A stretch of DNA of 52,433 nucleotides from a candidate division WOR-3 bacterium. GTDB lineage: Bacteria; SDB-A. A model generated the notes under the pieces. The model worked only from the letters and a program-made list of their open reading frames with translations. It was not told where the DNA came from and did no database searches. The stretch spans positions 1-52,433 of the forward strand of contig JAFGIG010000030.1 in NCBI GenBank assembly GCA_016929715.1, read 5' to 3'. Positions 22,480-41,199 of the stretch are shown here, in pieces (positions within the stretch are counted from its first letter, which is position 1; each line of letters starts with the position of its first letter). The position numbers and the translations under genes were made by a program.

Positions 22480-23329
22480 TTTTTTCTCCTTTTCTCACAA
22501 TGTCGAGGGCGATATCGAGCGATCTGTATGAATGGGTAAGCTTACCCACTGAAACAAAATCCACTCCAAGGGAAGAAAGAGTTTTTATCTTTTTTTCGTC
22601 AATTTTTCCCGAGACTTCAACTTCAGATCTGCCGGCGATTATCTTCATCGCTTTCTCGATATCTCTCAGATCCATGTTGTCGAGCATTATCCTGTCCGCG
22701 CCTTCTTTCAGCACAGCAGGTATCTGCTCTAATTTTGACACCTCGACTTCTATAAACTGTCCGGGAAAGCGTCTTTTAGCTTTGGCTATCGCCAGAGCCG
22801 CATCATTGTCACAGGAAGCTATATGATTGTCCTTTATCAGAACCATGTCGAAAAGGCCGAACCTGTGATTGACGCCCCCTCCTTTAAATACACTGTATTT
22901 CTCAATCTTTCTCTTGCCGGGAAAAGTCTTTCTCGTGTCGAGAATTTTTGTTTTTTCTCCGGCTTTTCTGACAAACTTTCCCGTGAGAGTAGCTATCCCG
23001 GACATTCTCTGAAGATAATTGAGAGCCACTCTTTCACCGGTCAAAATCGCTTTCAGCTTTCCTTCGATTTCTGTTAAAACATCTCCTTTTTTGATTTTAT
23101 CTCCGTCTTTTTTGCACGCCGCGAAGCGCACGCCTGAATCGAGCATCCTAAAAGTCTCTTTTGCGAACTCCATGCCCGCGAGTATTCCTTTTTCACGGGT
23201 TATGATAACCGCCGAAGCGCTGTCGCCGTTTTCGACGAGGGCTTCGGTCGTCAAGTCGCCTTTGCCGACGTCTTCCTTTAGTGCGAGCAAAACTTCTTCC
23301 CGAATTTCTTCGTCAGTGAAATCTATCAG
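22472..23329 (-). CDS. nadC: Quinolinate phosphoribosyltransferase (nicotinate-nucleotide diphosphorylase)
   Basis: ALKEDVG.GDLTT, ERVALNYLQRMSGIATLT, DTRKT.PG, NHR.GL.DMVLIKDNH, EVEV, IMLDNM. Start extended to CTG at 23329 behind AAGGAG (see findings). Confidence 0.95.
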   Translation of the reverse strand: MIDFTDEEIREEVLLALKEDVGKGDLTTEALVENGDSASAVIITREKGILAGMEFAKETFRMLDSGVRFAACKKDGDKIKKGDVLTEIEGKLKAILTGERVALNYLQRMSGIATLTGKFVRKAGEKTKILDTRKTFPGKRKIEKYSVFKGGGVNHRFGLFDMVLIKDNHIASCDNDAALAIAKAKRRFPGQFIEVEVSKLEQIPAVLKEGADRIMLDNMDLRDIEKAMKIIAGRSEVEVSGKIDEKKIKTLSSLGVDFVSVGKLTHSYRSLDIALDIVRKGEKNG

Positions 23330-23350
23330 GAAAGACTCCTTCTCAAATTT

Positions 23351-24454
23351 TCAGATTATTTCCGAATAAAGGACAGTGCAATTTTTTCCGCGTCTTTTGG
23401 CATCATACATGGCTTTATCAGCAAAAAACAGCAATTCATCTTCATTTTTTACGCTTGGGATTTTTGAAATTTCAGCGATTCCAAGACTTATTGTTTTCCT
23501 GAAAACTGATTTTTTTGAATTAAATTCGAGGGCGGATATTTTCTTCCTTATTTTCTCAGCTATTTTTCCCGCCTGAATTTCATCAGTGTTAGGAAGAATC
23601 ATTAAAAATTCCTCACCTCCAAATCTACCGGCGGTATCTTCTTTCCTAACTCCGTCGAAAATAATTCCGGCTATCTTTTTGAGAACTTCATCTCCTACGA
23701 GGTGGCCGTGCTCGTCGTTGCACTTTTTGAAGTCGTCTATATCTATCATTACGCAGGACAGCGGAGACTTTTGTCTTTTTGCCCTGCTGAATTCTTTTAT
23801 AAGCGAATCCATTACATAAGCTCTGTTGTGGATGCCAGTAAGTTTGTCTGTTATCGCTGTCCTGTAAAGTTCCGTATTCTTTTTTTTCAGCTCCGAGTTG
23901 AGCATTTCAATTTTTACGTTGATTTTTCTGAGTTCTTCGTTTCTCTTTTCGAGCTCATGTTTTGCGCTTTCAAGTTCTTTGTAAAGGTCTTTTATCTTTT
24001 TCAGGTGCCCGAGCTGTATCAGATTTGTTCCGTCGGACCTTTTTAGCTTTTCAATAATTGCGTCAACAATATTCGAATAAGTTGCCGGTATCGCCTCGAA
24101 TATTTTTGAAAGCTCATTTGGTTCTACAACGGCTATCTCAGCGCCGGATACCGCGTAAACGCTCGCTGTAGTTGTCTTGTCGTGTCCGAGAACGCCCAGT
24201 TCGCCGAAAATATCTCCCTCATTTCTAGTCGCTATATGCACTTTTTTGCCGCCGGGCATCTCTTTTGTGACTTTTACACTGCCCCCGAGTATAAGAAAAA
24301 GATTCCCCGCGGGTGCATTCTCCTCAATTATCAGTTGGTCCGGTTTGAAATCCCTTACAAAGAAATACTCTTTTGGTATCTTTTTTATCTCTTCGGGACT
24401 GACATTCTTGAAAAAACGATTATCCGAAAGTTTTGAAACAGTGTTTGTATCCAT
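23351..24454 (-). CDS. Diguanylate cyclase with N-terminal cyclic-nucleotide-binding domain and coiled coil
   Basis: cNMP-like domain (IIEENAP...LFLILGG.VKV...GDIFGE), coiled coil, TDKLTGIHNR, DIDDFK..ND.HGH.VGDEVL, RKED I-site, GGEEF, ADKAMY.AK..GKN. Confidence 0.93.
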   Translation of the reverse strand: MDTNTVSKLSDNRFFKNVSPEEIKKIPKEYFFVRDFKPDQLIIEENAPAGNLFLILGGSVKVTKEMPGGKKVHIATRNEGDIFGELGVLGHDKTTTASVYAVSGAEIAVVEPNELSKIFEAIPATYSNIVDAIIEKLKRSDGTNLIQLGHLKKIKDLYKELESAKHELEKRNEELRKINVKIEMLNSELKKKNTELYRTAITDKLTGIHNRAYVMDSLIKEFSRAKRQKSPLSCVMIDIDDFKKCNDEHGHLVGDEVLKKIAGIIFDGVRKEDTAGRFGGEEFLMILPNTDEIQAGKIAEKIRKKISALEFNSKKSVFRKTISLGIAEISKIPSVKNEDELLFFADKAMYDAKRRGKNCTVLYSEII

Positions 24455-24479
24455 TTGCCGCCTTTTTTATAGCAAAAGC

Positions 24480-24508
24480 ATTCTATATCATGGAATGTTA
24501 TTTTTCAA
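24480..24508 (-). promoter_or_regulatory. Putative sigma70 promoter for the cNMP-GGDEF/nadC run
   Basis: TTGAAA (24508-24503), 17 nt spacer, TAGAAT (24485-24480). AAGGCGG precedes the ATG. Confidence 0.6.
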
Positions 24509-24525
24509 CAACAGATTGCTAGCTG

Positions 24526-24554
24526 TTGACAAAGCCGCGAGAGAATTATAAATA
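24526..24554 (+). promoter_or_regulatory. Putative sigma70 promoter for the cyclase gene (little or no leader)
   Basis: TTGACA at 24526-24531. AT-rich -10 candidates TATAAA (24547-52) or TAAATA (24549-54) lie 5-7 nt before the ATG. No SD. Confidence 0.4.
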
Positions 24555-24559
24555 CTCCT

Positions 24560-27500
24560 ATGCGCGATTTAGTTCCCTTTTTCATAACCCAAAATTACTC
24601 AAAAGACTTAAAAGAAGGAAAGTTCAGAGCCGCTGTCCTTTTCGTGGACATAACCGGTTTTACCCAGATGACAAAAAGACTTATGGAAAAGGGGACCGAA
24701 GGCATAGAAATACTGACCCTGACAATAAACGACGTGTTTACACCTGCTATTACAGCTGTTCGGGCTCGAGGAGGATTCATCTCGGTTTTCGGCGGAGACG
24801 CTTTTTACTCTCTTTTTAACTCAAAAACAATAGGTTTCAAGCAAAACGCCCTTTCTGCAGCTCAGGAGATTACCCGTCTTTTCTCTGAGTTCGGCATAAA
24901 AAAAACAGGAGCCGGCGTTTTCGAGTTATCTGTAAAAACGGGTCTTTCCATGGGCGAAATCGAATGGGGAATTATACAAAATCCTCATCAAAACACATAT
25001 TATTTCAAAGGTGATCCGCTCGATTCAGCCTCTAATATTCAAAGGTATTGCGCCAAAAATCACGTCGTAGTAGACAAAAATTTTGTGGACTCATTCAGGA
25101 ACCGAAAGAGATTCAGTCCTGTCGGGGAAGGAGCGTTCACTCCAGATTTCACAGCAAACCCTCCGAATTCGACCACACAGTTAGTCAAACGCAGAAATGC
25201 CAAACAGAAAGAATTCATGCCGGCAACCCTCTTGGACGGCTCCGTTAAAAGTGAATTCAGAGAAGTAGTGAGTATTTTTATATCGTTTGCCGATTCCCCT
25301 CTTTTTCGAGAAAAAATATCAAAAGTCATAGACATCGTCAATGAGACAGGCGGATATTTTAACAGAGTGAGTTACGGCGACAAAGGAGGCTTCATACTAG
25401 TTTTTTACGGGGCTCCGGAAGGCAGGGAGCTTCTCTGCGAGAGAGCCGCAAAGATGGCTCTGTCAGTCGCCGCAATACCACATTTTATGATATGCGCCGG
25501 AATAACCTTCGGAATGTGTTTTTCCGGCTTCACCGGAACTGAAGAAAGAGCCGAATACACCTGCCAGGGAGAAAGAGTCAACCTCGCCGCGAGGCTGATG
25601 ACGTTAAAAAAAGACAACCTGCCTCCGGAACCGAGAATATTGACGGATTACGTGGTCAAGGAAAAACTTTCGTATTCATTCAGTTTTGAATTCGTCTGCG
25701 ATTCCGTCTTAAAAGGTTTTGACGATCCGGTTCCTGTTTTCTGTCTCAAAGGAGAAAAAACAATGAGTCAAATCCTCAGAGGCGAAGCAGTCGGCAGAGA
25801 AAGACATTTCGAAAAAGCGTCCGAGGTTTTCAACAAGACAATCGAAAGCGGGGTTTTCGGAGGAATCCTCAAGATAGAAGGCGAAGCGGGAACAGGCAAG
25901 AGCTTTTTTGTGGCGGAACTTGTCAAAAGGCATCCGTCTTTCAACTGGATTTTCATGCCCTGCGACCAGATCTTCAAATACTCTCTAAACCCCGTCAAAC
26001 ATTTTCTGAATCTTTTTTTTGGGTTTGGAGAAAAAGCGGCTGAAAATGATAAAATCTCATCGGCGAAAGAAAAACTCGTAAAGATTTTTTCCGGAGAAGA
26101 TTTTTTGGATTCAGGTGAAATTGACGTCATGCTCTTTTTCTTATGCCAGGTAGCCGGCCTGAAATACGAAGACCCTAATTTCGCATCTTTAGACCAGAAA
26201 AACAGAAAAGACATGATCCTGCATTACACTAAGCTGTTTATTAAAACCCTCTCGAAAAAAAAACCGACAATAGTTTTTTTTGACGACTTTCACTGGATAG
26301 ACGATGACACGCTTGATTTAGCAAAATCCCTCTGCCATGGCACTGAAAAAAACCCTTTAATCCTAGTTACGGCCTCCCGCAGGGCTGAATCCGGCGAAAA
26401 TATATTCCAAGACGCCCGGGTGTCTGAGATATCACTCAAACCTTTCAACCGCGAAGATTCTTTCGAACTTGCGAAAAAAATACTCAAAACCGAAGACATT
26501 CCTCAACCCACCCTCGAATTTATCTTCGATAGATCTGAGGGAAACCCATTTTACATCGAACAGACCATTCGTTTTCTTCTCGAAAACGGATATTTCGACC
26601 TTGATTTCAGGTTGAGCTCTGATGCCTCTTTCATCCCTTCCGGTATCAGGTCAATAATTATCTCAAGGTTCGACCGGTTCGGCAGAGATTTGAAAAATGC
26701 CATGATCCGCGCGTCTGTTCTCGGCAGGGAATTTTCCACAGAAATTCTCGCAAAAATGATTTCCGCTAAAAATATTGAAAGAATTCTCGGCGAAGGCGAA
26801 AAGAACGTGGTCTGGATGCCTCAGGGAACCGGACTGTATTCTTTCAGCCACGCGCTCATAAGAGATTCAGTTTATGAAATGCAGTTAAAAAGCGAGCTGA
26901 GAATACTTCACCGCGACGCTGCGAGAGCCTACGAAAATCTGCCTGAGGACTACAAAGAAAAAAACACGGGAATTATAGCCTTTCACTATGATTTGTCAGA
27001 CGACAAGGATAAGGCTCCTGTCTATCTTAAAAAAGCTTTTCTTCTCGCTCAAAAATCCTTTTCAACCATAGATTCTCTGCGGTTTTGCGAAGCTCTCGAC
27101 AAATACTTGGAGCAGGGAAAAGAAAAACTCGAAAACTCTATAAAGAGAATTCGCCTGATTTCCGTCACGGGAAAGCTTGAAAAAGCCGAAGAGATAGCCC
27201 AAAAAACCCTCGCAGACTGCGAAGACGAAATCTCCCTTGCCGCAGAATGTCTTATCAGCCTTTGCGAAATCACTTTGAAACTTTTCAAAATGGACAAAAA
27301 TCTCGAATACCTTAAAAAACTCGATGTTCTTTCGGAAAAGCTCGAAGACAAAAAAATAAGAACTGAACTTTTCAAGCTCTATGGATTTTACTGGCACAGC
27401 CATGAAGATGAAAAAAAGGCTGTTGTATATTTCCAAAAAGCCCTGAATCTGACAAGAATCACAAAAGACAAAAAAGCCGAAGCAAAATGCCTTTCAGATA

Positions 27501-28369
27501 TTTCTGTTTTCTGCGGACGCGAAATAGGCTTGGAAAAAGTCCTCGATTACCTCTTTGAAGCCCTTAAAATAGCTGAGGAAACAGGCGATTTGCGAACTCT
27601 TGAGATTATTTTATCCAACTTAGGTCTCAGCTACGCTGAAATATACCTCGATATAGAGAACTCATTCATTTACTATCAGAAAGGAATCGAAATATGCCGC
27701 AGGACAGGAAATATATCTGCCCTAATGAATAATCTCAACAATTTAGCTACTATCTATCTCGCAAAAGGGGAGAAAAAAACAGCCGAAGAACTTTTGAAAA
27801 CTTCTCTGGACATGGCCGCCGAAAGCGGTCATAAACTTGCAACTGTAAACGCATACTGTAACCTTTCTGTTTTTTACAGAAATTTAAGAAAATTCCGAAG
27901 TGCACTCGACTGCATAAAAAGAGCTGAAAAAATCATCGAAAACACGCCTATGAAAGAATACTTGTTGGCGGTAAAAAAAGACAGGTTCGAGATATATGCC
28001 TATACGAAAGACGCTTTGATGGCAAAAAATGCCCTCGATGATATAAATTCACTTCACAGGAAAATAAACGGGGGGGAAGACCTTCCTGATCTCGTTTTCT
28101 ACGAATTGAGAGTAAAATTTCTCCAAACAGGGGATAAAAAGATACTGACTGAGATGGAAAAAGAAGCTGAAAAAACACCTCTAAAAAGCAGGAAAGCCCA
28201 CACCCATTATATTATCTGGAAGACTTCAGATTCCCCTGAAAGCGCCGAGATTTCTCTCAATCTTTACAGGGAACTCATCCAAGAACCTCCAAAGGATTTT
28301 AAGGACATCTACTGGGTCATAAGAAAAAAAGAACTCGAGAATTATTTCAGGGACATGCGGGAATCCTGA
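24560..28369 (+). CDS. Soluble-AC-like class III nucleotidyl cyclase (two cyclase domains) + STAND/AAA NTPase + TPR array
   Basis: C1: LFVDITGFT...FGGDA. C2: NRVSYGDKG...YGAP...EYTCQGERVNLAARLM. Walker A GEAGTGKS, Walker B FFDDFHWID, SEGNPFYIEQ, ASVLGREF, FSHALIRD.VY, then TPRs (LSNLGLSY, LNNLATIY). Confidence 0.9.
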   Translation: MRDLVPFFITQNYSKDLKEGKFRAAVLFVDITGFTQMTKRLMEKGTEGIEILTLTINDVFTPAITAVRARGGFISVFGGDAFYSLFNSKTIGFKQNALSAAQEITRLFSEFGIKKTGAGVFELSVKTGLSMGEIEWGIIQNPHQNTYYFKGDPLDSASNIQRYCAKNHVVVDKNFVDSFRNRKRFSPVGEGAFTPDFTANPPNSTTQLVKRRNAKQKEFMPATLLDGSVKSEFREVVSIFISFADSPLFREKISKVIDIVNETGGYFNRVSYGDKGGFILVFYGAPEGRELLCERAAKMALSVAAIPHFMICAGITFGMCFSGFTGTEERAEYTCQGERVNLAARLMTLKKDNLPPEPRILTDYVVKEKLSYSFSFEFVCDSVLKGFDDPVPVFCLKGEKTMSQILRGEAVGRERHFEKASEVFNKTIESGVFGGILKIEGEAGTGKSFFVAELVKRHPSFNWIFMPCDQIFKYSLNPVKHFLNLFFGFGEKAAENDKISSAKEKLVKIFSGEDFLDSGEIDVMLFFLCQVAGLKYEDPNFASLDQKNRKDMILHYTKLFIKTLSKKKPTIVFFDDFHWIDDDTLDLAKSLCHGTEKNPLILVTASRRAESGENIFQDARVSEISLKPFNREDSFELAKKILKTEDIPQPTLEFIFDRSEGNPFYIEQTIRFLLENGYFDLDFRLSSDASFIPSGIRSIIISRFDRFGRDLKNAMIRASVLGREFSTEILAKMISAKNIERILGEGEKNVVWMPQGTGLYSFSHALIRDSVYEMQLKSELRILHRDAARAYENLPEDYKEKNTGIIAFHYDLSDDKDKAPVYLKKAFLLAQKSFSTIDSLRFCEALDKYLEQGKEKLENSIKRIRLISVTGKLEKAEEIAQKTLADCEDEISLAAECLISLCEITLKLFKMDKNLEYLKKLDVLSEKLEDKKIRTELFKLYGFYWHSHEDEKKAVVYFQKALNLTRITKDKKAEAKCLSDISVFCGREIGLEKVLDYLFEALKIAEETGDLRTLEIILSNLGLSYAEIYLDIENSFIYYQKGIEICRRTGNISALMNNLNNLATIYLAKGEKKTAEELLKTSLDMAAESGHKLATVNAYCNLSVFYRNLRKFRSALDCIKRAEKIIENTPMKEYLLAVKKDRFEIYAYTKDALMAKNALDDINSLHRKINGGEDLPDLVFYELRVKFLQTGDKKILTEMEKEAEKTPLKSRKAHTHYIIWKTSDSPESAEISLNLYRELIQEPPKDFKDIYWVIRKKELENYFRDMRES

Positions 28370-30095
28370 AAGTGAAAACGCTCCCCTCGTTTGTTTTTGA
28401 AAACACGCCTATTTCTCCTCCGTGAAGCTCTATTAGTCTTTTGACTATGGAAAGCCCGAGTCCTGTTGTCTGTTCTCCTTCCGTCCCCTCTCTTTTCGCC
28501 TCCGTGAATTTATCGAATATTTTAGGCTTCATTTCTTCCGGAATTCCAATTCCGCTATCTTCCACGGACACGACGGCATATAGGATATCCCCCGACAATT
28601 CCCTTTTGTGTGTTATTGAAATCCTGCCGCCTCTTGGCGTGAATTTGAGGGCGTTAGAAAAAAGATTCTGCATTATCTGCCAGAATCTGTTGAAATCAAC
28701 CATGCAAATACAGTTCCCCCCTTCGTTGCTCAATTCGAAATTCACGCCTTTTTTCCCTGAAAGCCTCCTGAAATCGCCGGCAAATTCGGAGATGAGATCG
28801 GCTATGTTCATCTCCGCAAGTTCGAGCCTAAAATCTTCGCTCTCGATTTTGTTTATCTCGAGAATGTCTTCAACGAGAACGAGAGCCCTTTGGACGTAAT
28901 GCTTTATGACTTCAAGAGTTTCTTCTGCCTCTGCGTTCAGATTCTGCAGATGCGCAAGCATTTGGGACAACGGTATAATCGAACCTATCGTTCCCTTGAG
29001 GTCGTGGGAAACAACTCTCATTATAGCGTCTTTGGACTTGTTCAGCTCCGTCAGTTCTTCGTTTTTTTCGGCAAGTTCGGCGTTTTGTTTTTCTATCATC
29101 ATATTAGCACCGGCAAGTTCTTCGTTTTTCATCCTGTAAATTTCAGTTTCTCTTTCTCTGAGCTTGACCTCGAAACGGGCGTCCATTTCTGCGATTCTCG
29201 ATGTTTTTTCTTCATTGAAAATAACGTCCATCTTCTCGGCGTATATCCGGCTGAAATAAAGAGCTTTCTGATATTCTTCTTTTTCTTCGTATAGCTCTGA
29301 TAAGGTTTTTGCAGCGTTCATCTGACCTAAATTATTGTCAGTCGAGAAATATATTTCAAAAGCCTCCCTGACATATTCAAGGGATTTCTCAGTATCTCCC
29401 TTCTCTTTCATTATCAGTCCAAAGTTGAAAAGAGGCGGAGCCTCACCGTTCCTGTCACCTATTTCACGCTTCAAAGCAATAGCTTTTTCGTAATATGAAA
29501 GGGCTTCCTCCAAAGCGCCTGTCTCCCTGTAAACCTCGCCGATGTTGTTCAGTATAAAAGACAATGGCCTTTTGTTTCCGGCGCTTTCGGCGGCTTTTTT
29601 CGCCCTTTCGAGGTATTCAAGGCTTTTCGCGAAGTCTCCTAAACGCCTGTAGACGTTTGCGATATTGTTACAGCTCTGCTGTATGAACTTCTGCAGGCCT
29701 TCCTTTTCCCTTATCTCGAGAGATTTTTTCATATAGAAAAGGGCTTTTTCGGTTAGGTTCATTTTGGCAAATACAACTCCCATGCCTTCGTATGAACTCG
29801 TAAGCCTGTCCGGGTCTGTCTCTGATGACGCCACTTTCTGAAAATATTCTATCGCCTTATCGAAGTCGGACATGTGAAAACACAAAAACCCCAAGCGGAG
29901 GAAGGCTCTGTTTTTAAGGTCTTCGATACTGTTTTTTTCGCATATCTCCAGCGCCGTCAAAGCGCAGTTGAATGAAGGGACGGTTTCCGAAGCTTCAAAA
30001 AATTCTTTTGCTTTTTCAAGGAGATATGTGGCTTTTTCTCTGTCAGTCGAAAGGACGTCCGCTTCGCTGAAAACGATATTTGTTTTATCGGCCAT
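28347..30095 (-). CDS. Cytoplasmic TPR-repeat sensor histidine kinase
   Basis: TPRs (CNNIANVY.RLG, LNNIGEVY..TG) and a coiled coil. H-box VSHDLK, N-box NLFSNALKFT, G1 DSGIGI, F-box IFDKF, G2 TGLGLSIVK. No obvious TM. Confidence 0.92.
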   Translation of the reverse strand: MADKTNIVFSEADVLSTDREKATYLLEKAKEFFEASETVPSFNCALTALEICEKNSIEDLKNRAFLRLGFLCFHMSDFDKAIEYFQKVASSETDPDRLTSSYEGMGVVFAKMNLTEKALFYMKKSLEIREKEGLQKFIQQSCNNIANVYRRLGDFAKSLEYLERAKKAAESAGNKRPLSFILNNIGEVYRETGALEEALSYYEKAIALKREIGDRNGEAPPLFNFGLIMKEKGDTEKSLEYVREAFEIYFSTDNNLGQMNAAKTLSELYEEKEEYQKALYFSRIYAEKMDVIFNEEKTSRIAEMDARFEVKLRERETEIYRMKNEELAGANMMIEKQNAELAEKNEELTELNKSKDAIMRVVSHDLKGTIGSIIPLSQMLAHLQNLNAEAEETLEVIKHYVQRALVLVEDILEINKIESEDFRLELAEMNIADLISEFAGDFRRLSGKKGVNFELSNEGGNCICMVDFNRFWQIMQNLFSNALKFTPRGGRISITHKRELSGDILYAVVSVEDSGIGIPEEMKPKIFDKFTEAKREGTEGEQTTGLGLSIVKRLIELHGGEIGVFSKTNEGSVFTFRIPACP

Positions 30096-30122
30096 AGAAC
30101 TACCTTTCGATTTTCTGCCAGT

Positions 30123-30150
30123 ATTTTAATCTGGTTTTAAGCATATTCAA
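30123..30150 (-). promoter_or_regulatory. Putative sigma70 promoter for the TPR kinase
   Basis: TTGAAT (30150-30145), 16 nt spacer, TAAAAT (30128-30123). Confidence 0.45.
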
Positions 30151-30213
30151 AGTGTTATTTTCGATCCGTTTTTTCGCACTCGTTCACCTTTGCTGTCCAC
30201 GGACACATAAAAC

Positions 30214-30240
30214 AAAAAAAGGGGGCAAAAGCCCCCTTTT
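30214..30240 (-). terminator. Intrinsic terminator downstream of the secreted CTD protein (possibly bidirectional)
   Basis: AAAAGGGGGC-AAAA-GCCCCCTTTT is a perfect inverted repeat. The minus strand ends in a 7-T tract. Confidence 0.85.
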
Positions 30241-30295
30241 AGCAATCCTGCCAGAAAAAATTATCTGACCCTGTCAAATAAATTTTGATCTGAAT

Positions 30296-32170: not shown

Positions 32171-32209
32171 AAAATACTCCTTTCCTTTTAAGTTAAAGGA
32201 TGAAAAGAA

Positions 32210-32239: not shown

Positions 32240-32258
32240 AGAGTTGTTTTAGAAATTT

Positions 32259-33476
32259 CTACGTCTTCAATTCTTTTTTCTTCGCGGCGGGAAAGAGGAC
32301 GTTGTTGAGTATCAGCCTGTAGCCGGGAGAATTCGGGAAAAGAGAAAGGTCGGTCGGGGGGTCGCCTACATAATGTGTGAAATCCTCGGGGTCGTGCCCC
32401 CCAAGATAAGCGAAACTGCCCTGTCCCAGATTTCCGCAGAGGTATTTTATCTCGTCGGCGCCGGGGACGTCCCCGAGGAGTGTTATCTCAGACCTGACGC
32501 AGGATCGCCTGAAACCGGTGCACTGTCCCAGAAACTCCCTGACTGTCCCCACATGGTTCTGGACAAGCATAGAAGGGACGGGGTCTTCCTTTGCGCTGAA
32601 CTCGTATAGTCTGAAAAAGACGTTTTCGCCCCTGAGATGAGCCTCCTGCGAGACATCTATCGTCGAGTGTTCGTATATGTTCGGATCCATTATTATTTCG
32701 AAATCCGTGAAAGCGGGCGAACGGGAAAAATCCACTTCACCCGTTCCGACGGGATCTCCGTCGAAAGGCGACGCGACTATGTCCCTGCCGTAAGCGGCGA
32801 GAGCTATTTCCCATGTATCGGTTGCAGAACACATGGCGAAAAGATATCCGCCGTTTTCCACGTATTCGTATAGCTTTCTTGCGACTTCATGCTTCAATTT
32901 CCAGACCTTGTCATACCCGAGGAGCCTTGCTGTCTCTTCATTGAGCCGAACCTGGTCCTTATACCACTGAGTATTGGCATAGGAAGCCCAGAACTTGCCG
33001 TATTGGCCCGTGAAATCCTCGTGATGGAGGTGGACCCATTCATAATCGGACAGCTTGTCTTCCATAACCTCGACGTCCCATATCCTGTCATAGCTTATAC
33101 CGGCGTAATCGAGCGCCATGACAACGGCATCGTCCCAGGGTTGAGCCCCTGGAGTTTGATAGACAGCCACTTTCGGGGCTTTGTGAAGGAGGACGACGTC
33201 GGCGTTCATATTCTCTATCTCGGATTTTATGAGGGCTTCTTTTTCAGGAGATATCAGGGAATAACCGACTCCGGATCTTTTCAGGTCGTCCTCAATACCG
33301 GAATTGTCTTCCAAAATGAAACTTCCGCCTCTGTAGTTTATAAGCCATTCGACTTCGAGCCCCACTTCGAGAGATCTGTATGCTACACCGTATGCCTTGA
33401 GGTGATTTGTCTGTGACATGTCCATGGGAACAAAAATCCTCTGGATCAGAGCGAAAAAAATTGACAAAATATTCAA
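32259..33476 (-). CDS. Conserved FCB-group protein (often labelled 'asparagine synthetase B'; class-I GATase-like fold, function unknown)
   Basis: PMD..Q.NHLKAYG..Y, WLINYRGGSF, QPWDDAV.MAL.YA.I.YD, LHHEDFTGQYGKFW, FAMCSATD, GGHDPED..H.VGDPPTDL.L.PNSPGYRLILNNVLFPAA. No AsnB N-terminal Cys and no SGG.DS motif. Confidence 0.7.
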   Translation of the reverse strand: MNILSIFFALIQRIFVPMDMSQTNHLKAYGVAYRSLEVGLEVEWLINYRGGSFILEDNSGIEDDLKRSGVGYSLISPEKEALIKSEIENMNADVVLLHKAPKVAVYQTPGAQPWDDAVVMALDYAGISYDRIWDVEVMEDKLSDYEWVHLHHEDFTGQYGKFWASYANTQWYKDQVRLNEETARLLGYDKVWKLKHEVARKLYEYVENGGYLFAMCSATDTWEIALAAYGRDIVASPFDGDPVGTGEVDFSRSPAFTDFEIIMDPNIYEHSTIDVSQEAHLRGENVFFRLYEFSAKEDPVPSMLVQNHVGTVREFLGQCTGFRRSCVRSEITLLGDVPGADEIKYLCGNLGQGSFAYLGGHDPEDFTHYVGDPPTDLSLFPNSPGYRLILNNVLFPAAKKKELKT

Positions 33477-34879
33477 TTTTTTTCTCTTTTTTTGGACTCT
33501 ATTATTCTTTTCGCCAATAAAATTCCTTCTTCGAGGCTGTCGAAATCACCGTCGAGCTGGGCTTCATAGAGTTCTTTCAGGACATCTCCCATGAAGGGTG
33601 AAGGTTCTATACCGAGTTTCAGAAGATGCCTTCCCATAACTATTGGTTTGAGCTGTTCCTCTTGGATTTTCATGTCTCTGAGAGTTCTATCGAGCCAAAG
33701 GATCTCTTCCGAGTCGCCGAAGACCTGACCTCTGCCGAATTTGTCCGCCATAAAAAGTGCTTTCAGGAGTTCGAGCTCAGTCCCACCGAAAAGCCTCCTC
33801 ATTGCGCCTTTTGTTACTATATCGCGCGACTTCCATAAATCGTATATCCTGTGGTGAGACAAGACGAGAGAAGACACTCTTTCCGTGACCGATTTCGGAG
33901 CCTTCCATCTGGAGAGGACTATTTTGGCAATTTTCGCGCCCGCAGGCTGATGCCCCGGCGAAATCAATCTGCCGGCTTTTCTGCCTTCTTGCGCCTGTTT
34001 TGTAGAGACCGTCTTGCCTATGTCGTGAAAGAGAACAGACAGCATGAAGACGAATTTGTCTTCTTCGGAAAGCATATTTTCTCTGAGTGAAGCGGCGACG
34101 TCGAGAGACAGGACAGTGTGAATAAAAACACTTCCCTCTGGATGCCATATTATGTCCTGAGAGCATTCTACCATCGAGGATATCTCGGGTTCCGATGAAA
34201 AGAGAAAAAGCGAGTGTGCGGCGAGAAAACCTCTGCCGGGAAAATCCCCTTCGACGAGCATTTTCTTAATTTCCGCGAAAATTCTCTCTCTCGGCAAACT
34301 CTTTGTGTCTGTTCTTCTGCACAATTCGGCGGTATTTGTCTCTATAGGAAAACCGAGCGATGCCGCGAACCTCATCGCCCTGTATGCCCTCAAGGGATCT
34401 TCGCCGAAGTGATTGGCGTCGCAAGCCCTGAGTATTCCTGTCTTCATGTCCTTGACTCCTCCGAGAGGGTCAATAATTTCGCCTGTCAGCGCGTCTTTCA
34501 GAACGCTGTTTACTGTGAAATCTCTCCTCCTGCAGGCTTCATAATACGATAGCCCCGGGTCGGCTTTTACCTCGAATCCTTTGTGCCCCTCGCCGATTCT
34601 CCTGTCCCTTCTCGGCAGAGATATCTCAAGGTTGCCGATTCTGTAAACGGCGAATGATTTTCCGGTCAAATCGACTTTTCCAAATTTTTTAAGAATCTTT
34701 TCGAGAGCATCTGGAGACAGTCCGTAGACCTCAGCGTCTATATCTTCGTTTCTTCTCATCCTCCCGAGCATGACATCACGGACCGTTCCTCCCACTTCAA
34801 AAAGCCTGCCTCCGGATTCTTTCACTTCTAAAGCAATTTTCTGAAGGAGCGTTTTTGCCTCCCGGACTTTATCTGTCAA
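33473..34879 (-). CDS. cca: CCA tRNA nucleotidyltransferase with HD domain
   Basis: VGGTVRD..LG...DIDAE, RRDFTVNS, DPLGG..D, EDPLR.YR..RF, ERIF.E..K, WHPEG.V..HT, LFHDIGK, GRHLL.LG. Confidence 0.88.
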   Translation of the reverse strand: MTDKVREAKTLLQKIALEVKESGGRLFEVGGTVRDVMLGRMRRNEDIDAEVYGLSPDALEKILKKFGKVDLTGKSFAVYRIGNLEISLPRRDRRIGEGHKGFEVKADPGLSYYEACRRRDFTVNSVLKDALTGEIIDPLGGVKDMKTGILRACDANHFGEDPLRAYRAMRFAASLGFPIETNTAELCRRTDTKSLPRERIFAEIKKMLVEGDFPGRGFLAAHSLFLFSSEPEISSMVECSQDIIWHPEGSVFIHTVLSLDVAASLRENMLSEEDKFVFMLSVLFHDIGKTVSTKQAQEGRKAGRLISPGHQPAGAKIAKIVLSRWKAPKSVTERVSSLVLSHHRIYDLWKSRDIVTKGAMRRLFGGTELELLKALFMADKFGRGQVFGDSEEILWLDRTLRDMKIQEEQLKPIVMGRHLLKLGIEPSPFMGDVLKELYEAQLDGDFDSLEEGILLAKRIIESKKREKN

Positions 34880-35174
34880 AAAAACCTTCCCCCTCCGGGC
34901 ATCTGCAGGGGTTATCTTTGCAGGAAGGGCATTTACCTACATATCTGAGAACTGCTTTTTCAACGTCCACGTCAGCGAGATTTGCCATTGTCATCAGCCA
35001 TGCCAAAACATCGGCGAATTCGTTTTCGCAGTCACTGAGTTTCTTTTTTCTCAGGGCCTGAGAGAGTTCGCCGACTTCCTCCACAAAATGGTTGAAACTC
35101 TTTGAGATCCCTCTTCTTTCATCTCTTTCCCCGAACAGAACCCGGATATTTTCCTGAAATTCCTTTAGAGTCAT
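34869..35174 (-). CDS. MazG-like nucleotide pyrophosphohydrolase (single domain, C-terminal Cys cluster)
   Basis: MTLKEFQ..I, EEVGEL, ENEFADVLAWL..MAN, CPSC...PCRC. Start placed at ATG 35174 behind AAGGGG. Confidence 0.85.
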   Translation of the reverse strand: MTLKEFQENIRVLFGERDERRGISKSFNHFVEEVGELSQALRKKKLSDCENEFADVLAWLMTMANLADVDVEKAVLRYVGKCPSCKDNPCRCPEGEGFFDR

Positions 35175-35211
35175 GCCTTGTCCCCTTTTAGTAAGCAAAT
35201 ATGTATTTTGC

Positions 35212-35240
35212 ATAATACCATTTCCCTTGATTGCTGAAAA
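35212..35240 (-). promoter_or_regulatory. Putative extended -10 promoter for mazG-like/cca operon
   Basis: TTTTCA, 17 nt spacer, TATTAT, with TG at the extended -10 position (TGgTATTAT). Confidence 0.4.
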
Positions 35241-35295
35241 ATTATATTATATCTCTTAATGCGTAAAAGCATCTTTTAATTGGGCTTGTTTAAGC

Positions 35296-36165
35296 ATGAT
35301 AAAATCCGTAAAAGAAATATTGGGTCAGACATTTCTGACTCGTGAAGCCTGGGTGTTCTGGGCGTCTTCTTATATAATACTTTCCCTGATGTATAGATCC
35401 GCTCCCTATTGGAGCTCTCTGGTCCTCAATTATGTCTATTCGACTTTTCTTTTTCTGCTGTTGCCCATTACGGTAGTCTCTTTCCCTAAAGAAAAAAAAC
35501 CCGGCAAGCTCATCTTCTGGTTCACGGCTCTTTTTTTCTCGCTTGGTCCGCTTCTCGCGGCAGAATTATTCCCAAAAATCAGGGCTTCTCTTTTCCCGCC
35601 TTACTCGCCTGCAACAGGGCCTCTCAACGGTCTTGCCGTCGGCATATCCTTCACGGCGCCATGCGCCCTGATAGTATTCACTTATTGTCTGTATTCCGGT
35701 TTCAGCCTTCGTTCGATAGGTTTGGGGACTGGAAAATGGAAATTCTGGCTTCCGCTCGTTTCAGTATTGGTTCTTATAATGACTCCTGTGCTCTTGTATT
35801 TTTCGAAAAAGCCGGATTTTATAGCCACTTATCCGCTTTTTCGACACATGATAAAAAACACAGGAGACTTCTGGGCCATAGATATTTCCTGGTTTTACTA
35901 CCTCTACATATGGGAATTCTTTTTCAGAGGATTCATGCTTTTTTCCCTCGCCAAAAAGACGGGTCCTGCGAGGGCAATTTTCATTCAAGCCGTTGTTTTC
36001 GCTTTCGCCCATCTCGGAAAGCCGGAAATTGAAGTCTATTCCTCTATGATAGGGGGTGTCCTCGTCGGGATTCTTTCTTATTTATCAGGTTCAGTTCTTC
36101 CCGGAGCTCTCATTCATTGGCTTATAGCCATAATAATGGATGTATTCGTGTTCTTCTTCAATTGA
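35296..36165 (+). CDS. CPBP-family (CAAX/Abi) intramembrane metalloprotease
   Basis: Multiple TMs. WEFFFRG, FAFAHLGKP..E, ALIHW. Confidence 0.85.
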   Translation: MIKSVKEILGQTFLTREAWVFWASSYIILSLMYRSAPYWSSLVLNYVYSTFLFLLLPITVVSFPKEKKPGKLIFWFTALFFSLGPLLAAELFPKIRASLFPPYSPATGPLNGLAVGISFTAPCALIVFTYCLYSGFSLRSIGLGTGKWKFWLPLVSVLVLIMTPVLLYFSKKPDFIATYPLFRHMIKNTGDFWAIDISWFYYLYIWEFFFRGFMLFSLAKKTGPARAIFIQAVVFAFAHLGKPEIEVYSSMIGGVLVGILSYLSGSVLPGALIHWLIAIIMDVFVFFFN

Positions 36166-36174
36166 TCTGCTGAT

Positions 36175-36203
36175 TTGATAAAGCTTGGAATTAGTGATAT
36201 AAA
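36175..36203 (+). promoter_or_regulatory. Putative sigma70 promoter of roadblock-Omp85-ABC operon
   Basis: TTGATA, 17 nt spacer, TATAAA with upstream TG. AAGGAG RBS follows. Confidence 0.45.
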
Positions 36204-36224
36204 CTTATATAAAAAGGAGTAGTA

Positions 36225-36626
36225 ATGATAGAATACGCGATTTCAACTCACGCCGATAAGATACTCTCCATGCTCGAGAAATTTGTCGGTGATCACAACT
36301 TCGTCGAAGGTATGACGATAGCTGACAAGGACGGCCTTTCGATTGTCAGCTATTTCCATTCAGAGACACAGGAAGAGATTCTCGCGGCAATATCTCCCGT
36401 GATAATTAAAGACCTTTCTTCTCTTCCTCTCGGCGAAATCAGATATTTTATAGCAATGGGAAAAGATGCTTTTGCGGTCGTCAAACCTCTTGACTCGCAG
36501 ACGTTCCTTTCCATGTTCTCTCAACTTGACGTATGGAACGGACTCATGGGTCAAAAAGACATAATCACGGATTTCGAGATACTGACCGCTCAGCTCATGC
36601 GGCTGGGAAACAGAAATGAAACTTAA
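36225..36626 (+). CDS. Roadblock/LC7 (MglB-like) domain protein
   Basis: 133 aa. VEGMTIADKDGLSIVS...EEILAAIS matches the roadblock pattern. AAGGAG RBS. Confidence 0.65.
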   Translation: MIEYAISTHADKILSMLEKFVGDHNFVEGMTIADKDGLSIVSYFHSETQEEILAAISPVIIKDLSSLPLGEIRYFIAMGKDAFAVVKPLDSQTFLSMFSQLDVWNGLMGQKDIITDFEILTAQLMRLGNRNET

Positions 36627-39450
36627 AATATACTTGCCCCTTCTCTCTCTTTTATTCATTCAGAACTTGACCGCGCAGTATTTCGGCCAGAACAAACTGC
36701 AATACAGGAATTTCGACTGGAAAGTAACCCAGACAGAACACTTCAAAATCTACTATTATCAAGGAATGGACGAAATAGCTTTTTTTGCCTGCCAGGTGGC
36801 CGAAGACGCTTATTCATCATTATCCGTTAATTTCAACCATGAATTCAAGGAAAAAATTCCCGTCCTCATTTACAGGAGCCCGAACGACTTTTCTCAGACC
36901 AACGTAATACTCGATTTGATTTCCGAATCCGTCGGCGGCTTCACAGAATTTTTGAAAAACAGAGTCGTCGTTCCTTTTAACGGCTCTTATTCCGACTTCA
37001 GGCATGTCCTCGCCCACGAGATAACCCACGCGTTTCAAAACGACGTCTTATACGGACAGTCGAATATTTTCCTCAAAATGTATTCCATGGACATACCCCT
37101 TTGGTGGTTTGAAGGCTCAGCCGAATTCGAGTCAAACGGATGGAATTCAGAATCATACATGTATATCAGAGACCTTGTTTTCTCTAACAAACTCGTCAGC
37201 CTCGAAGAGCTCGATTACTACGGCGGATACATAATCTACAAAGAAGGCCAGTCCGTGATGTATTTCATAGCCGAGAAATACGGAAGGCAGAAAATCGGAG
37301 AGATATTCCACAATATAAAAATAACAGGATCTCTCAGAAAAGCGATCCAAAAGACACTGAACATAGAATATGAAAAGTTCAGCGAGGAATGGACAAAATT
37401 TCTCTATTCGCTTTACTGGCCGGATTACAACGCATACGCCGACATAGACGGCTACTCTGTCAGGCTGACAGATACAAAAAACCTTTACAACCGTATAAAC
37501 CTTTCGCCTATTATTTCCCCCGACGGACTCCAAGTCGTTTTCATAAGCGATGCCGGAGTCTACATAGACATCCTCAAGATGTCGGCTCTTTCCGGAAAAA
37601 TCGAAAAGAAACTCGTAGGAGGGCAGAGGACGCCACAGTTTGAAGGGCTTCACATTTTGACGAGTCATGCTTCGTGGTCTCCTGACGGTGAAAAAATAAT
37701 TATTTCTTCCCTGAGCGAGGGCAGGGACCTTTTCTGGATACTGGACGCTAATTCAGGCAGGATCCTCAGAAAGCTCGATTTCGATCTCGACATAGTCCGC
37801 TCTCCTTATTGGTCTAATGAGAACATCATATATTTCGTCGGAACAGCAAACGGCAGGACCGACATATTTTCATCCGACCCTGAAGGGAATTTTCTCCGAA
37901 AAATAACCGACGATGTATTCGACGACAGAGATCCTTTTGTTTCTTCGGACCACAAGTTTTTATACTGGTGCAGCGACAGAAATGAAGGCGAGAATTGGGA
38001 ATACGGAAGTTATTCTGTTTTTCAAATGAATCTCGAAGACGGTTCGGTTCGGGAACTCACGCCGAGAAACCAATCCCTTTCAAATCCCTATGTCCTGTCT
38101 TCAGGCGAAGACGGGAAACAGCATCTTCTCTTTCTCGCTTCATACACTCCGGGCAACAACCTGTTTTCCTGCGACCTTGAAACAGGCGAGATAACCCAGC
38201 TGACTAACCTGCCCGGGGAAATCCAGAGTTTTTCCTTGGATTCAAAGTCGAGCAGAATGGTTATGAGTGTTTACACATCAGGAAAATGGGACATTTTCAC
38301 GGTTCAGAACCCTCTCGAAACACTCGACACTTTCGACTTTGCCTTCGACAGTTCGAAATACATAGAGGTCTATTCCACTGTCCAAAAACCCGGAGACTCC
38401 CTTTCATGGGCTAAGCCGAGTTTAGAGATAAGCGCAGACTGGGGTCAGGCATCAATGGCTTATTCAAGCCTATACGGCTTTGCAGGACTTCTTACGGTCG
38501 CATTGAGCGATTTTATGGGCAATCACAGGTTCCTAATACAGACAGACCTCGCCCAGGACATATTGAAGTCGAATTTCAACATAATTTATTTTTATCTTCC
38601 CAAAAGATGGGACACCGGTTTCGGCATTTATCAGCAGAGTTTCGCTTACTGGTATAAAAGGGACACGATAAACGTGGACAAATACCTCGGGGGTGAATTC
38701 CTTTTTTTGTATCCTTTGAACAGGTTTCAGAGGTTCGATTTGATGCTCGACATATATCAGATAGATCGAAAAAAATATTTCTATGATTCATTCAGAGATG
38801 AGGTGTTTTTTTCGCGTGAGACTTCCGAGGTTTTTTTGGCGCCTTCTCTTTACTATGTTTTCGACAACACACTGTGGGGATACACTTCCCCTTTCCTCGG
38901 AACGAGAATGCGATTCGGGGGAGGACTGGCACAGAGAATTTCCACAAATTCGAGATATCACTGGGGAAGTTTCGACTTGAGGAAATACTGGCGTATCACG
39001 CCCCGCAGCAACGTAGCCTTCAGATTATATCTCGCCGGCATAAGAGGAACAGATCCGCCGAATCTTTATCTCGGTGGATACAACAATCTCAGAGGATACG
39101 AAATAAACGAATTCAGCGGATTCAACACGGGATTTTTCTCTCTCGAAGCGAGGTTCCCTTTCATTGATTATCTGAATGTTATATTTCCTCTGCCTGTTTT
39201 TTTGGGCGGGATAAGGGGATGCCTGTTCGTAGACGCCGGCGGGACAGCGAAGGAAGTTAATGAATTTAAGGTTTTTTCAGACGACCCTGAAAAGGGCTTC
39301 GGGCTCGAAGACTTGAAGATGGACATAGGCTGCGGGATTCGCATGTTTTTCATGACGGCTGTCCTGAAACTCGATTTTGCGGTCCCCACCGATTTGAGGG
39401 ACTTGAACAACAGGACAAAGATATATTTTTCAATCGGGGAAGATTTCTGA
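36616..39450 (+). CDS. Outer-membrane Omp85/BamA-family protein fused to a zincin peptidase and TolB-like PD40 propeller
   Basis: Signal peptide then QYFGQNK. HEITH + WWFEGSAE (gluzincin). PD40 repeats (PIISPDG, ASWSPDG, DPFVSSD). Barrel with LRGY motif and C-terminal beta-signal-like IYFSIGEDF. Confidence 0.85.
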   Translation: MKLKIYLPLLSLLFIQNLTAQYFGQNKLQYRNFDWKVTQTEHFKIYYYQGMDEIAFFACQVAEDAYSSLSVNFNHEFKEKIPVLIYRSPNDFSQTNVILDLISESVGGFTEFLKNRVVVPFNGSYSDFRHVLAHEITHAFQNDVLYGQSNIFLKMYSMDIPLWWFEGSAEFESNGWNSESYMYIRDLVFSNKLVSLEELDYYGGYIIYKEGQSVMYFIAEKYGRQKIGEIFHNIKITGSLRKAIQKTLNIEYEKFSEEWTKFLYSLYWPDYNAYADIDGYSVRLTDTKNLYNRINLSPIISPDGLQVVFISDAGVYIDILKMSALSGKIEKKLVGGQRTPQFEGLHILTSHASWSPDGEKIIISSLSEGRDLFWILDANSGRILRKLDFDLDIVRSPYWSNENIIYFVGTANGRTDIFSSDPEGNFLRKITDDVFDDRDPFVSSDHKFLYWCSDRNEGENWEYGSYSVFQMNLEDGSVRELTPRNQSLSNPYVLSSGEDGKQHLLFLASYTPGNNLFSCDLETGEITQLTNLPGEIQSFSLDSKSSRMVMSVYTSGKWDIFTVQNPLETLDTFDFAFDSSKYIEVYSTVQKPGDSLSWAKPSLEISADWGQASMAYSSLYGFAGLLTVALSDFMGNHRFLIQTDLAQDILKSNFNIIYFYLPKRWDTGFGIYQQSFAYWYKRDTINVDKYLGGEFLFLYPLNRFQRFDLMLDIYQIDRKKYFYDSFRDEVFFSRETSEVFLAPSLYYVFDNTLWGYTSPFLGTRMRFGGGLAQRISTNSRYHWGSFDLRKYWRITPRSNVAFRLYLAGIRGTDPPNLYLGGYNNLRGYEINEFSGFNTGFFSLEARFPFIDYLNVIFPLPVFLGGIRGCLFVDAGGTAKEVNEFKVFSDDPEKGFGLEDLKMDIGCGIRMFFMTAVLKLDFAVPTDLRDLNNRTKIYFSIGEDF

Positions 39451-40388
39451 CAAAAAGATTTTTCGAAAAACATTCGCATTGGCTGTATCTGTTTCCGGCT
39501 CTGTCAGTTCTCGTAGTTTTCAAACTTTTTCCTATTCTTCTGTCGCTAATCGTCAGTTTTTTCAAGTGGAACATGGCGGGTCCGAATACTTTTATTTCAT
39601 TCGGCAATTACCTGAACGTTTTGACTGACTCTCTATTTTGGAATGCTTTTCTAAACACTTTATACTACACCGCTTTCAGCCTTCCTTTCTCAATAGGACT
39701 TTCCATGTTTTTCGCCGTAATGCTCAATTCGGTGACCAAAGGCAGGACTTTTTTCAGAGTTGTTTACTATCTGCCGGTGATAACCTCCATAGTCGCCGTA
39801 TCGGTCATCTGGAAATGGATCTATCACCCCAGAGTCGGCTTGATAAATTCATTTCTTTCGATCCTGAACATTACCGGACCGGAATGGCTCGGAGAATACA
39901 GAGGGATTTTTGAAATTTTTTCGGGTAAAAATTTGCCCTATCTTTTAAAAGGCCCTTCCCTCGCCCTTTTGAGCCTTGCCGCAATGTCAGTCTGGAAAAG
40001 CCTGGGATACGATGTTTTAATTTTTCTCACCGGTCTCCAGAGCATTCCGCAGACTTACTATGAAGCGGCGAAACTCGACGGCGCGGGTTCATGGAAGACC
40101 TTCAGGCACGTTACTTTGCCTTTATTGTCTCCGACGACTTTTTACGTCTTCATTATGTCCACGATAAGCTCTTTTCAGGTCTTCGCTCCGGTCTGGCTGA
40201 TGACCGGTCCTCCGGCGGGAGGACCTCTCGACAGCACTAACGTCGTCGTATTCTATCTATACGAGAAAGCTTTTCAGTTTTTCAAGTTCGGAGCAGCGAG
40301 CGCCACAGCGTTCATTCTTTTTTCAGTCCTCCTCGTTTTGACTGCGATTCAGAAAAGATACTCGGAAAGGAAGGTCTTCTACGGTTAA
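39447..40388 (+). CDS. Carbohydrate ABC transporter permease (UgpA/MalF-like)
   Basis: EAA motif YYEAAKLDGA..W..FRHVTLPLL and YYLPVITS.VA. TM1 (WLYLFPALSVLVVFKLFPILLSL..SF) lies upstream of the ORF-track ATG, so the start is placed at CTG 39447. Confidence 0.9.
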   Translation: MTKRFFEKHSHWLYLFPALSVLVVFKLFPILLSLIVSFFKWNMAGPNTFISFGNYLNVLTDSLFWNAFLNTLYYTAFSLPFSIGLSMFFAVMLNSVTKGRTFFRVVYYLPVITSIVAVSVIWKWIYHPRVGLINSFLSILNITGPEWLGEYRGIFEIFSGKNLPYLLKGPSLALLSLAAMSVWKSLGYDVLIFLTGLQSIPQTYYEAAKLDGAGSWKTFRHVTLPLLSPTTFYVFIMSTISSFQVFAPVWLMTGPPAGGPLDSTNVVVFYLYEKAFQFFKFGAASATAFILFSVLLVLTAIQKRYSERKVFYG

Positions 40389-41199
40389 AAGCAAAAAGAT
40401 ACTTGTCTACACTGTTTTGTCCGCGGGAGCCTTAGCGATGATCTTGCCGTTTTACTGGATGGTCCTAACCGCTTTCAAAACTCCTTCTGAAGCGATTTCC
40501 GTTCCCCCGACGTGGATTCCGTCCGAATGGACATTTTCAAATTTCTCCGAGGCATGGTCAAAAGTCCCTTGGTTGAAATACTTTTTTAATACTGCTTTGG
40601 TCGCTGTTTTCATACTCGCTGGAAATCTTTTGACGTCAATTTTAGCGGGATTCGCTTTTTCCAACTTCGATTTCAAGGGCAAAGAAAAAGTATTTCTACT
40701 ATTTCTCGCCACGATGATGATTCCGATGCCTGTATACATAATACCGGGATATCTGATTCTGACATACTTGAACTGGATAGACACATATGCGGCGCTCATA
40801 GTTCCCTGGACTGTGAGTGTTTTTTCGGTTTTTCTTGTCCGACAGCACATGAAGACTATTCCTCGTGAACTCTGGGATGCCGCGAGAATTGACGGATGCG
40901 GCAAGTTCGGATATCTGTGGAGAATTGTGGTTCCCCTTATAAAACCCGCTCTCGCGACAGTTTCAATTTTTTCAGTAGTGAGTTCATGGAACAGTTTTCT
41001 ATGGCCGCTCGTTGTCACGAACTCAAAACATTTAAGGCCGATTCAGGTGGGGCTCGCCTATTTTACTCAGGAACAGAGCACTGATTACACTCTTCTTTCC
41101 GCCGCGGCGACTTTCACAGCCCTTCCCCTCATAGTTCTGTTTCTTTTCGCCCAAAAAAGGATAATAAACAGTTTCGCCAGATCAGGGTTAAAAGATTGA
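40381..41199 (+). CDS. Carbohydrate ABC transporter permease (UgpE/MalG-like)
   Basis: PFYWM..TAFK, YFFNT, IPRELWDAARIDG, WNSFLWPLVV, FAQKRII. Start placed at ACG 40381 (alternative TTG 40417). Confidence 0.88.
   Translation, partial: TVKSKKILVYTVLSAGALAMILPFYWMVLTAFKTPSEAISVPPTWIPSEWTFSNFSEAWSKVPWLKYFFNTALVAVFILAGNLLTSILAGFAFSNFDFKGKEKVFLLFLATMMIPMPVYIIPGYLILTYLNWIDTYAALIVPWTVSVFSVFLVRQHMKTIPRELWDAARIDGCGKFGYLWRIVVPLIKPALATVSIFSVVSSWNSFLWPLVVTNSKHLRPIQVGLAYFTQEQSTDYTLLSAAATFTALPLIVLFLFAQKRIINSFARSGLKD

Follow-up and report, generated by a model that had tools for sequence, protein, structure and literature searches.

Within the window, i.e., the whole 52,433-nucleotide (nt) stretch of DNA from a candidate division WOR-3 bacterium that was analysed here, three genes appear to be translated from near-cognate start codons: the quinolinate phosphoribosyltransferase gene nadC from a CTG, the gene of a MalF-type ABC permease (permease 1) from another CTG and that of a MalG-type ABC permease (permease 2) from an ACG. 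Comparing these sites with those of relatives, we consider it likely that the three codons are genuine weak start codons, which would benefit from Shine-Dalgarno (SD) pairing and from ribosomes that restart once they have finished the upstream gene. Near-cognate starts are not limited to these three genes. We find them in at least 16 of 1128 testable genes of the same genome, and a congener has a set of its own that overlaps with these 16, i.e., the trait belongs to the genus. The window corresponds to contig C23 in the 1.98-Mb metagenome-assembled genome G000, which consists of 142 contigs and is 94.7% complete.

Re-reading of the sequence confirmed that each of the three codons is placed 6 nt behind an SD-like motif, as the first-pass annotation had reported. 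The nadC gene (22472..23329, minus strand, 285 codons, Pfam domains QRPTase_N and QRPTase_C) is read here from CTG 23329-23327, 6 nt behind AAGGAG (23341-23336, minus strand), which is a 6-base SD match in register. Its frame is open from 23350, immediately behind the TGA stop (23351..23353, minus strand) of a 367-codon gene upstream; this stop is in the nadC frame, 21 nt before the CTG. The first canonical codon, i.e., the first ATG, GTG or TTG of the frame, is the TTG at 23288..23290 (minus strand), which has an SD match of 3 bases only and is an unlikely start. Permease 1 (39447..40388, plus strand, 313 codons including the first membrane helix, Pfam BPD_transp_1) is read from CTG 39447-39449, which overlaps the stop TGA 39448-39450 of the preceding 944-codon outer-membrane-type gene (36616..39450, plus strand) in a CTGA, i.e., at -4. 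The SD-like GGGGA 6 nt before this codon (39436..39440, plus strand) matches AAGGAGGT in only 3 bases. Here, the first canonical codon is an internal methionine, ATG 39573..39575 (plus strand), which lies 42 codons inside conserved sequence and has an SD match of 2 bases. Permease 2 (40381..41199, plus strand, 272 codons, Pfam BPD_transp_1) is read from ACG 40381-40383, which leaves an 8-nt overlap with permease 1 (TAA 40386-40388) and follows 6 nt behind GGAAGG (40369..40374, plus strand; AAGGA, a 5-base match), while its first canonical codon, TTG 40417..40419 (plus strand), has an SD match of a single base and is again an unlikely start. It had been proposed that two of the three starts show the geometry of translational coupling, and this holds, i.e., permease 1 and permease 2 start at -4 and -8 relative to the upstream stop, and nadC at +21.

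We read the three loci in three relatives of the same genus (G001-G003) and in two genomes from sister genera (G004 and G005). For permease 1, the start column of the alignment holds CTG in all four genus genomes (G000-G003), each time with the same CTGA overlap, and TTG in G005. The GGGGA or AGAAGA in front of the CTG is kept across the genus, and another canonical codon near this start is found in G002 only (GTG, three codons downstream). When permease 1 is read from the CTG, homologues in unrelated families match it from residues 3-14 onwards, and thus the 42 extra codons encode the conserved first membrane helix. For permease 2, the start column holds ACG in G000, G002 and G003 and ATG in G001 (MAKSKK...) and G005 (MAKIR...). 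In G002, TTA takes the place of the TTG at 40417; the canonical codon that follows is located within the first membrane helix, just before the conserved PFYW. A change from ATG to ACG does not alter the amino acid of the permease 1 codon that overlaps it (TAT to TAC). For nadC, all four genus genomes show CTG, and G004 shows ATG (MVKFNETEINNIVLNALKED vs. LIDFTDEEIREEVLLALKED); the TTG at 23290 reads TTA in G003 and GCT in G002. In G001, nadC has an extra ATG 4 codons upstream, aligned with the AAG of the AAGGAG in G000. A fusion of nadC to its upstream gene by TGA read-through was considered as well and rejected, since G001 has a TAA and its own ATG there. No frameshifts or stops were seen in the relatives' copies of the flagged genes. 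That is, ATG or TTG starts of relatives fall in the columns of the three codons, and the downstream canonical codons are lost in relatives, in line with the proposal that the flagged codons are real starts. Neither an ATG at these sites in the reads nor orthologues starting at the downstream codons were found.

The bases themselves were compared with a separate public assembly, which probably derives from the source sample and is independent of the assembler and not of the sample. At a depth of about 121x, it spans positions 23000-41000 with identical bases at all three sites and a single difference (25318 A>C). At 25318, both DNA runs read C vs. the A in the window, which is either an assembly error or a variant. 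The one RNA run of the study yields three small contigs, confined to 24591-24869 and 32990-33025. These RNA contigs, which come from a different sample of that study and have a depth of 2, carry C vs. T in the DNA at 24623 and 24777, both in the 5' part of a 1269-codon gene; a strain difference is the most likely cause.

To tabulate start codons genome-wide, we called 1772 genes in G000 with a hexamer model (91.6% coding) and compared them with 1.786 Mb of the congener G001, which gave 1225 reciprocal best pairs, 1128 of them usable, with a median protein identity of 67%. A gene was considered if its similarity to the orthologue extended at least 8 codons upstream of the first ATG, GTG or TTG, in DNA free of other genes. 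For most G000 genes, similarity ends within 0-7 codons at a shared canonical start. It runs at least 8 codons beyond the first canonical start in 58 of the 1128 pairs, and after reading of the DNA 16 genes (1.4%) were accepted, i.e., the three flagged genes and 13 more; this share is a lower bound, as extensions of fewer than 8 codons are invisible to the method. The suggested recurrence of near-cognate starts is thereby borne out. The 16 start codons are CTG (six), ATT (five), ACG (two), ATC (two) and ATA (one), while AAG and AGG are absent among them. Among the added genes, pilD, holB, a_1604 and dapB start at CTG, tsaC at ACG, purQ, a_1570, a_415, a_309 and selA at ATT, lspA and a metallophosphoesterase gene at ATC, and mreC at ATA. 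Two further cases are likely, namely uvrB (ATT) and a CPBP-like gene (GGGGA-6-CTGA). Near-cognate starts are confined to few of the genes.

The extensions show the substitution pattern of coding DNA. When the 16 genes are aligned between G000 and G001, their extensions comprise 477 codons with a protein identity of 64%, and nucleotide differences are distributed over codon positions 1:2:3 as 132:90:275. A coding control, i.e., codons 3-14 behind shared canonical starts, gives 1552:1055:2974, while in-frame DNA upstream of shared-start genes, which served as non-coding control, shows no such third-position excess (674:662:656). This is also reflected in the domain content. In six genes (pilD, purQ, holB, lspA, dapB and the metallophosphoesterase gene), a Pfam domain starts before the first canonical codon is reached. 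The A24_N domain of pilD lies almost entirely within the extension, and the other domains start at residue 7 (GATase_5 of purQ), 8 (DNA_pol3_delta2 of holB), 15 (Peptidase_A8), 1 (Metallophos) and 7 (DapB_N). Gene calling that allows only ATG, GTG and TTG truncates these proteins, as the first-pass annotation had expected.

Beside the coding signal, the proposed starts show SD support. G000 uses classical SD motifs, for which the spacing between AGGAG and the start peaks at 5-7 nt; a short-motif search did not find the 3' end of the 16S rRNA, and the anti-SD was derived from the upstream regions of genes. An SD core of at least 4 bases in the 5-8 nt register is present at 12/16 proposed starts vs. 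0/16 first canonical codons, with a baseline of 37.5% among 1080 confident starts.

Comparison with G001 also shows how stable these codons are. The same near-cognate codon is found in G001 for permease 1, a_1604, tsaC (ACG in both), a_309, a_415, lspA, mreC and purQ, while the aligned codon is ATG for pilD, holB, permease 2, a_1570 and dapB. The start column of the metallophosphoesterase gene reads ATA vs. ATC between G001 and G000. Searches with pilD, tsaC and holB in G002-G005 gave full-length matches from residues 1-7 at the protein level, and relatives of tsaC in metagenomes comprise 37 loci, all distant (25-36% over long matches). The near-cognate starts are old, judged from their presence in species with a median protein identity of 67%, and the type of start codon turns over in both directions between the congeners. 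G001 also has cases of its own, among them miaA (b_800, C89, minus strand), which has no canonical codon before its P-loop, and b_742, in which a signal peptide likewise has no canonical start; the G000 counterparts have GTG or ATG.

With regard to the position relative to upstream genes, 12/16 starts fall in the range of -30 to +10 nt relative to the stop of an upstream gene on the same strand vs. 672/1563 (43%) of the other genes (Fisher p = 0.019). For a range of +/-30 nt around the stop, the numbers are 14/16 vs. 865/1563 (p = 0.010). Four of the six CTG starts form CTGA overlaps and one start forms an ATAG overlap; others lie at -8 to -20 with the SD inside the upstream gene. The starts of nadC and lspA follow the upstream stop at +21 nt and that of a_1570 at +99 nt. 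In the window, the operon at 36616-42443 contains three successive overlap junctions with weak starts (CTGA, ACGGTTAA and TTGA), the last of which joins permease 2 to the TTG-started gene of a solute-binding lipoprotein (41196..42443, plus strand).

Given their proximity to upstream stops and their SDs, we read these codons as weak starts fed by terminating ribosomes. The ordinary initiator tRNA (fMet-tRNA) would read the near-cognate codon, and an SD at the normal distance of 5-7 nt would hold the ribosome in place and offset the weakness of the codon. Where the start lies at or inside the upstream gene's end, terminating ribosomes would restart there (termination-reinitiation), and output would presumably be low and tied to translation of the upstream gene. 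Initiation at the five kinds of codon seen here is measurable in E. coli. According to 10.1101/063800, AUA, AUC, AUU and CUG reach 1-2% of the initiation obtained with AUG and other codons, ACG included, reach 0.1-1%, and mass spectrometry identified an N-terminal methionine in the product of an ACG-started reporter.

Several observations weigh against this reading. An ATG that has undergone a single mutation is necessarily near-cognate, such that near-cognate identity alone proves nothing. The 12/16 figure for SD cores is partly circular, as the SD helped to choose the codon in several of the added genes; it is independent of codon choice in five genes (pilD, holB, permease 2, a_1570 and nadC), in which the codon is fixed by the ATG of an orthologue and all SD matches comprise at least 5 bases. 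The SD of permease 1 is weak, and a scan of all upstream-open regions for an SD plus an in-frame codon gave no excess of CTG (6/111) over CTC (6/105; all codons: 167/8495). When pooled by hand, CTG, ACG, ATT, ATC and ATA reach 22/724 vs. 140/7395 for other codons, i.e., a weak excess. The enrichment near upstream stops rests on our own gene calls and 16 cases. Among these, selA is a weak case and the start of dapB is either the CTG or the next codon, ATT. Finally, for the 13 added genes the comparison covered a single congener, i.e., their start codons are known in G000 and G001 only.

The best surviving alternative is that the near-cognate codons act as restart points only, such that output would follow that of the neighbouring gene one-for-one or less. 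We regard this pure form of termination-reinitiation as possible, though on balance unlikely. It accounts for the crowding of the starts around upstream stops, for the four CTGA and the one ATAG overlap and for the chain of overlaps in the permease operon, and translational coupling at -4 and -1 overlaps is established (PMC6728339, PMC12548453 and PMC3592434). On the other hand, nadC and lspA (21 nt) as well as a_1570 (99 nt) start behind the stop and yet have the strongest SDs, and the strong SDs at 12/16 sites suggest that direct binding of the 30S subunit matters. Precedent for restart at a non-standard codon is also limited, i.e., the part of PMC3592434 available to us tests AUU alone, at the infC junction.

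A second alternative places the cause in the initiation machinery. The first-pass annotation had suggested that start-codon selection may be relaxed in this organism and had pointed to infC and the initiator tRNA as places where unusual substitutions might be found. This was borne out in part: near-cognate starts recur and are old, while a global relaxation is not supported, given the weak excess in the scan and the normal state of most fidelity elements. The initiator tRNA is ordinary: C1:A72 are mismatched, and the anticodon stem carries three G:C pairs. The tail of S9 is ordinary as well (it ends in ...FSKR), and RsmD-like and RsmB-like genes are present. The infC gene, however, encodes an unusual IF3. 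When aligned to solved IF3 chains, the G000 protein shows F at the position of E. coli R131 (RFRGRE becomes RLFGRE). This position is occupied by F (G000, G002 and G003), Y (G001) or V (G004 and G005), i.e., it is non-basic in all six genomes of the family, while R or K is found in 22/24 other relatives. Aromatic residues also occur there in G014 and G018. Furthermore, a 14-residue insertion in the C-domain (e.g., GKDGKQTKSPLSNK), placed between the equivalents of G121 and D122, is present in 6/6 family genomes and in 0/24 others; a search of the species collection for relatives of IF3 gave 4 loci, and outside the genus none of them added another IF3 with the insertion. The position of Y75, which is altered in E. 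coli infC362 (Y75N; PMC7145577), holds F, as does one solved IF3 chain of the same alignment, and this change is probably neutral.

These changes would fit a scenario in which the IF3 of the family has partly lost its rejection of codons beyond AUG, GUG and UUG, such that near-cognate codons could be fixed repeatedly. R131 is described in PMC3401457 as an exposed-loop residue that is a proposed mRNA contact and is involved in start-codon discrimination. Among G000 starts with an SD of at least 5 bases (ATG 394, TTG 76, GTG 60), TTG accounts for 76/530 (14%) vs. 4.35% in annotated model genomes (10.1101/063800). Still, the G000 infC (C64) starts at an ATT, 5 nt behind AAGGAGG, and an ATT or ATC behind AAGGAGG is found in 6/6 family genomes. 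E. coli uses this layout for the autoregulation of IF3, which needs discrimination, and the retention of the layout argues that IF3 still discriminates. Moreover, G004 and G005 share the IF3 changes and yet have ATG or TTG at the flagged sites, near-cognate codons behind SDs are not abundant genome-wide, and the tRNA, S9 and Rsm elements named above are ordinary. The notion that near-cognate starts are more frequent here than in other lineages is based on published numbers. Relaxed proofreading in this form thus seems unlikely to us. The wider claim, i.e., that a low-stringency IF3 has opened the start repertoire such that CUG, AUU, AUC, AUA and ACG serve as regular, long-lived starts in 1-2% or more of the genes, preferentially at coupled junctions, is doubtful. 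If it were true, the family would represent in nature what the infC fidelity mutants are in E. coli.

It is very improbable that translation starts at the downstream ATG or TTG codons instead and that the upstream similarity reflects conserved non-coding or overlapping sequence. Canonical codons do exist 12-42 codons downstream, and permease 2 could still form a short first helix when started at TTG 40417. However, the third-position bias of the extensions is that of coding DNA, the TTGs are not conserved, and an SD of at least 4 bases is absent from all 16 first canonical codons. Truncation at these codons would also deprive permease 1 of its first membrane helix, pilD of the whole A24_N domain and the metallophosphoesterase of its DxH motif.

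C-to-U RNA editing as in plant organelles, which would turn ACG into AUG and CUG into UUG, has a negligible probability: the three flagged codons and 8/16 in total (six CTG, two ACG) are one such change away from a canonical start, while the other 8/16 (ATT, ATC, ATA) are not repairable in this way, and to our knowledge no such editing system is known in bacteria. Equally hard to credit is a sequencing or assembly error or recent pseudogene formation, even for a metagenome-assembled draft in 142 contigs, given that identical bases in the separate 121x assembly and in up to three other species refute an assembly error and that the frames are intact and under purifying selection. We thus retain the reading of the three codons as weak starts that would be assisted by SD pairing and reinitiation.

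Among the 58 extensions, several were excluded for reasons of their own. Those of selD and a peroxiredoxin gene are selenocysteine TGA read-throughs, that of a_983 lies behind a tRNA-like conserved stretch, those of a_343 and a_568 resemble conserved non-coding or overlapped DNA, and that of a_552 contains a poly-T frame junction. The remainder showed weak similarity or a shared canonical start few codons away. In a_552 (C102, 13343-14596, minus strand), an ATG-started signal-peptide-like frame (MLLCVIDLFFF...) enters a poly-T tract of 9 T in G000 and 11 T in G001, behind which the conserved frame resumes at offset -1 in both species; transcriptional or ribosomal slippage may be at work here, or the tract may be phase-variable. 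The use of selenocysteine by the organism is seen in selD (...FAEKAG-TGA-AAKIGPCDL) and in the peroxiredoxin (...FYPGDFTFV-TGA-ATEV), where selenocysteine takes the peroxidatic position. The two genes are located on C81 (3201-4139, plus strand) and C130 (151-549, minus strand). Matches to the selenocysteine tRNA are found on C67 and C142, and at the start of C142 this tRNA adjoins selA.

Gene finders restricted to ATG, GTG and TTG cut functional parts from about 1.4% of the proteins of the genus. Among the lost parts are a permease's first membrane helix, the prepilin peptidase's entire N-domain and motifs of the metal-binding or P-loop type, and public protein sets for such uncultured lineages thus contain systematically truncated models. 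The present analysis adds a genome-scale lower bound with a control for coding selection, two ACG starts that are conserved in bacteria, a preference for coupled junctions and a candidate correlate in IF3. The genes are natural, conserved test cases for the tolerance of reinitiating ribosomes for non-AUG codons and for the stringency of natural IF3 variants. The turnover between ATG and near-cognate codons among congeners means that the strength of a start codon drifts or is tuned at coupled junctions, e.g., at permease 2.

Among known systems, the AUU starts of E. coli infC and pcnB resemble the starts described here in that a selected near-cognate codon follows an SD, and their known output is low or regulated. 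Two confirmed non-canonical starts are given for E. coli in 10.1101/063800, whereas at least 16 genes are concerned here, including CTG and ACG starts. In Deinococcus, N-terminal proteomics identified starts at ATC (dnaA), CTG (rpsL and Deide_03051) and ATA (infC), according to PMC2830850. As in our case, conserved housekeeping genes start at CTG or ATC genus-wide and gene callers misplace these starts. That study reports four genes, a number it calls unusual, and sought CTG, ATT, ATA and ATC only, not ACG; the present set is four times as large, lies mostly at coupled junctions and is based on sequence comparison. The start list of NCBI translation table 11 includes CTG, ATT, ATC and ATA and not ACG, i.e., the ACG starts of permease 2 and tsaC lie outside this table and beyond the reach of annotation pipelines. 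Termination-reinitiation at ATGA or TGATG shares its geometry with the junctions described here, but the restart codon is not AUG, GUG or UUG and the coupling is deduced from the arrangement of the genes. Finally, while the fidelity determinants of E. coli IF3 are known from Y75N (infC362) and R131, the family described here appears to have lost the R131-type residue naturally and throughout, and to have gained a 14-residue insertion as well.

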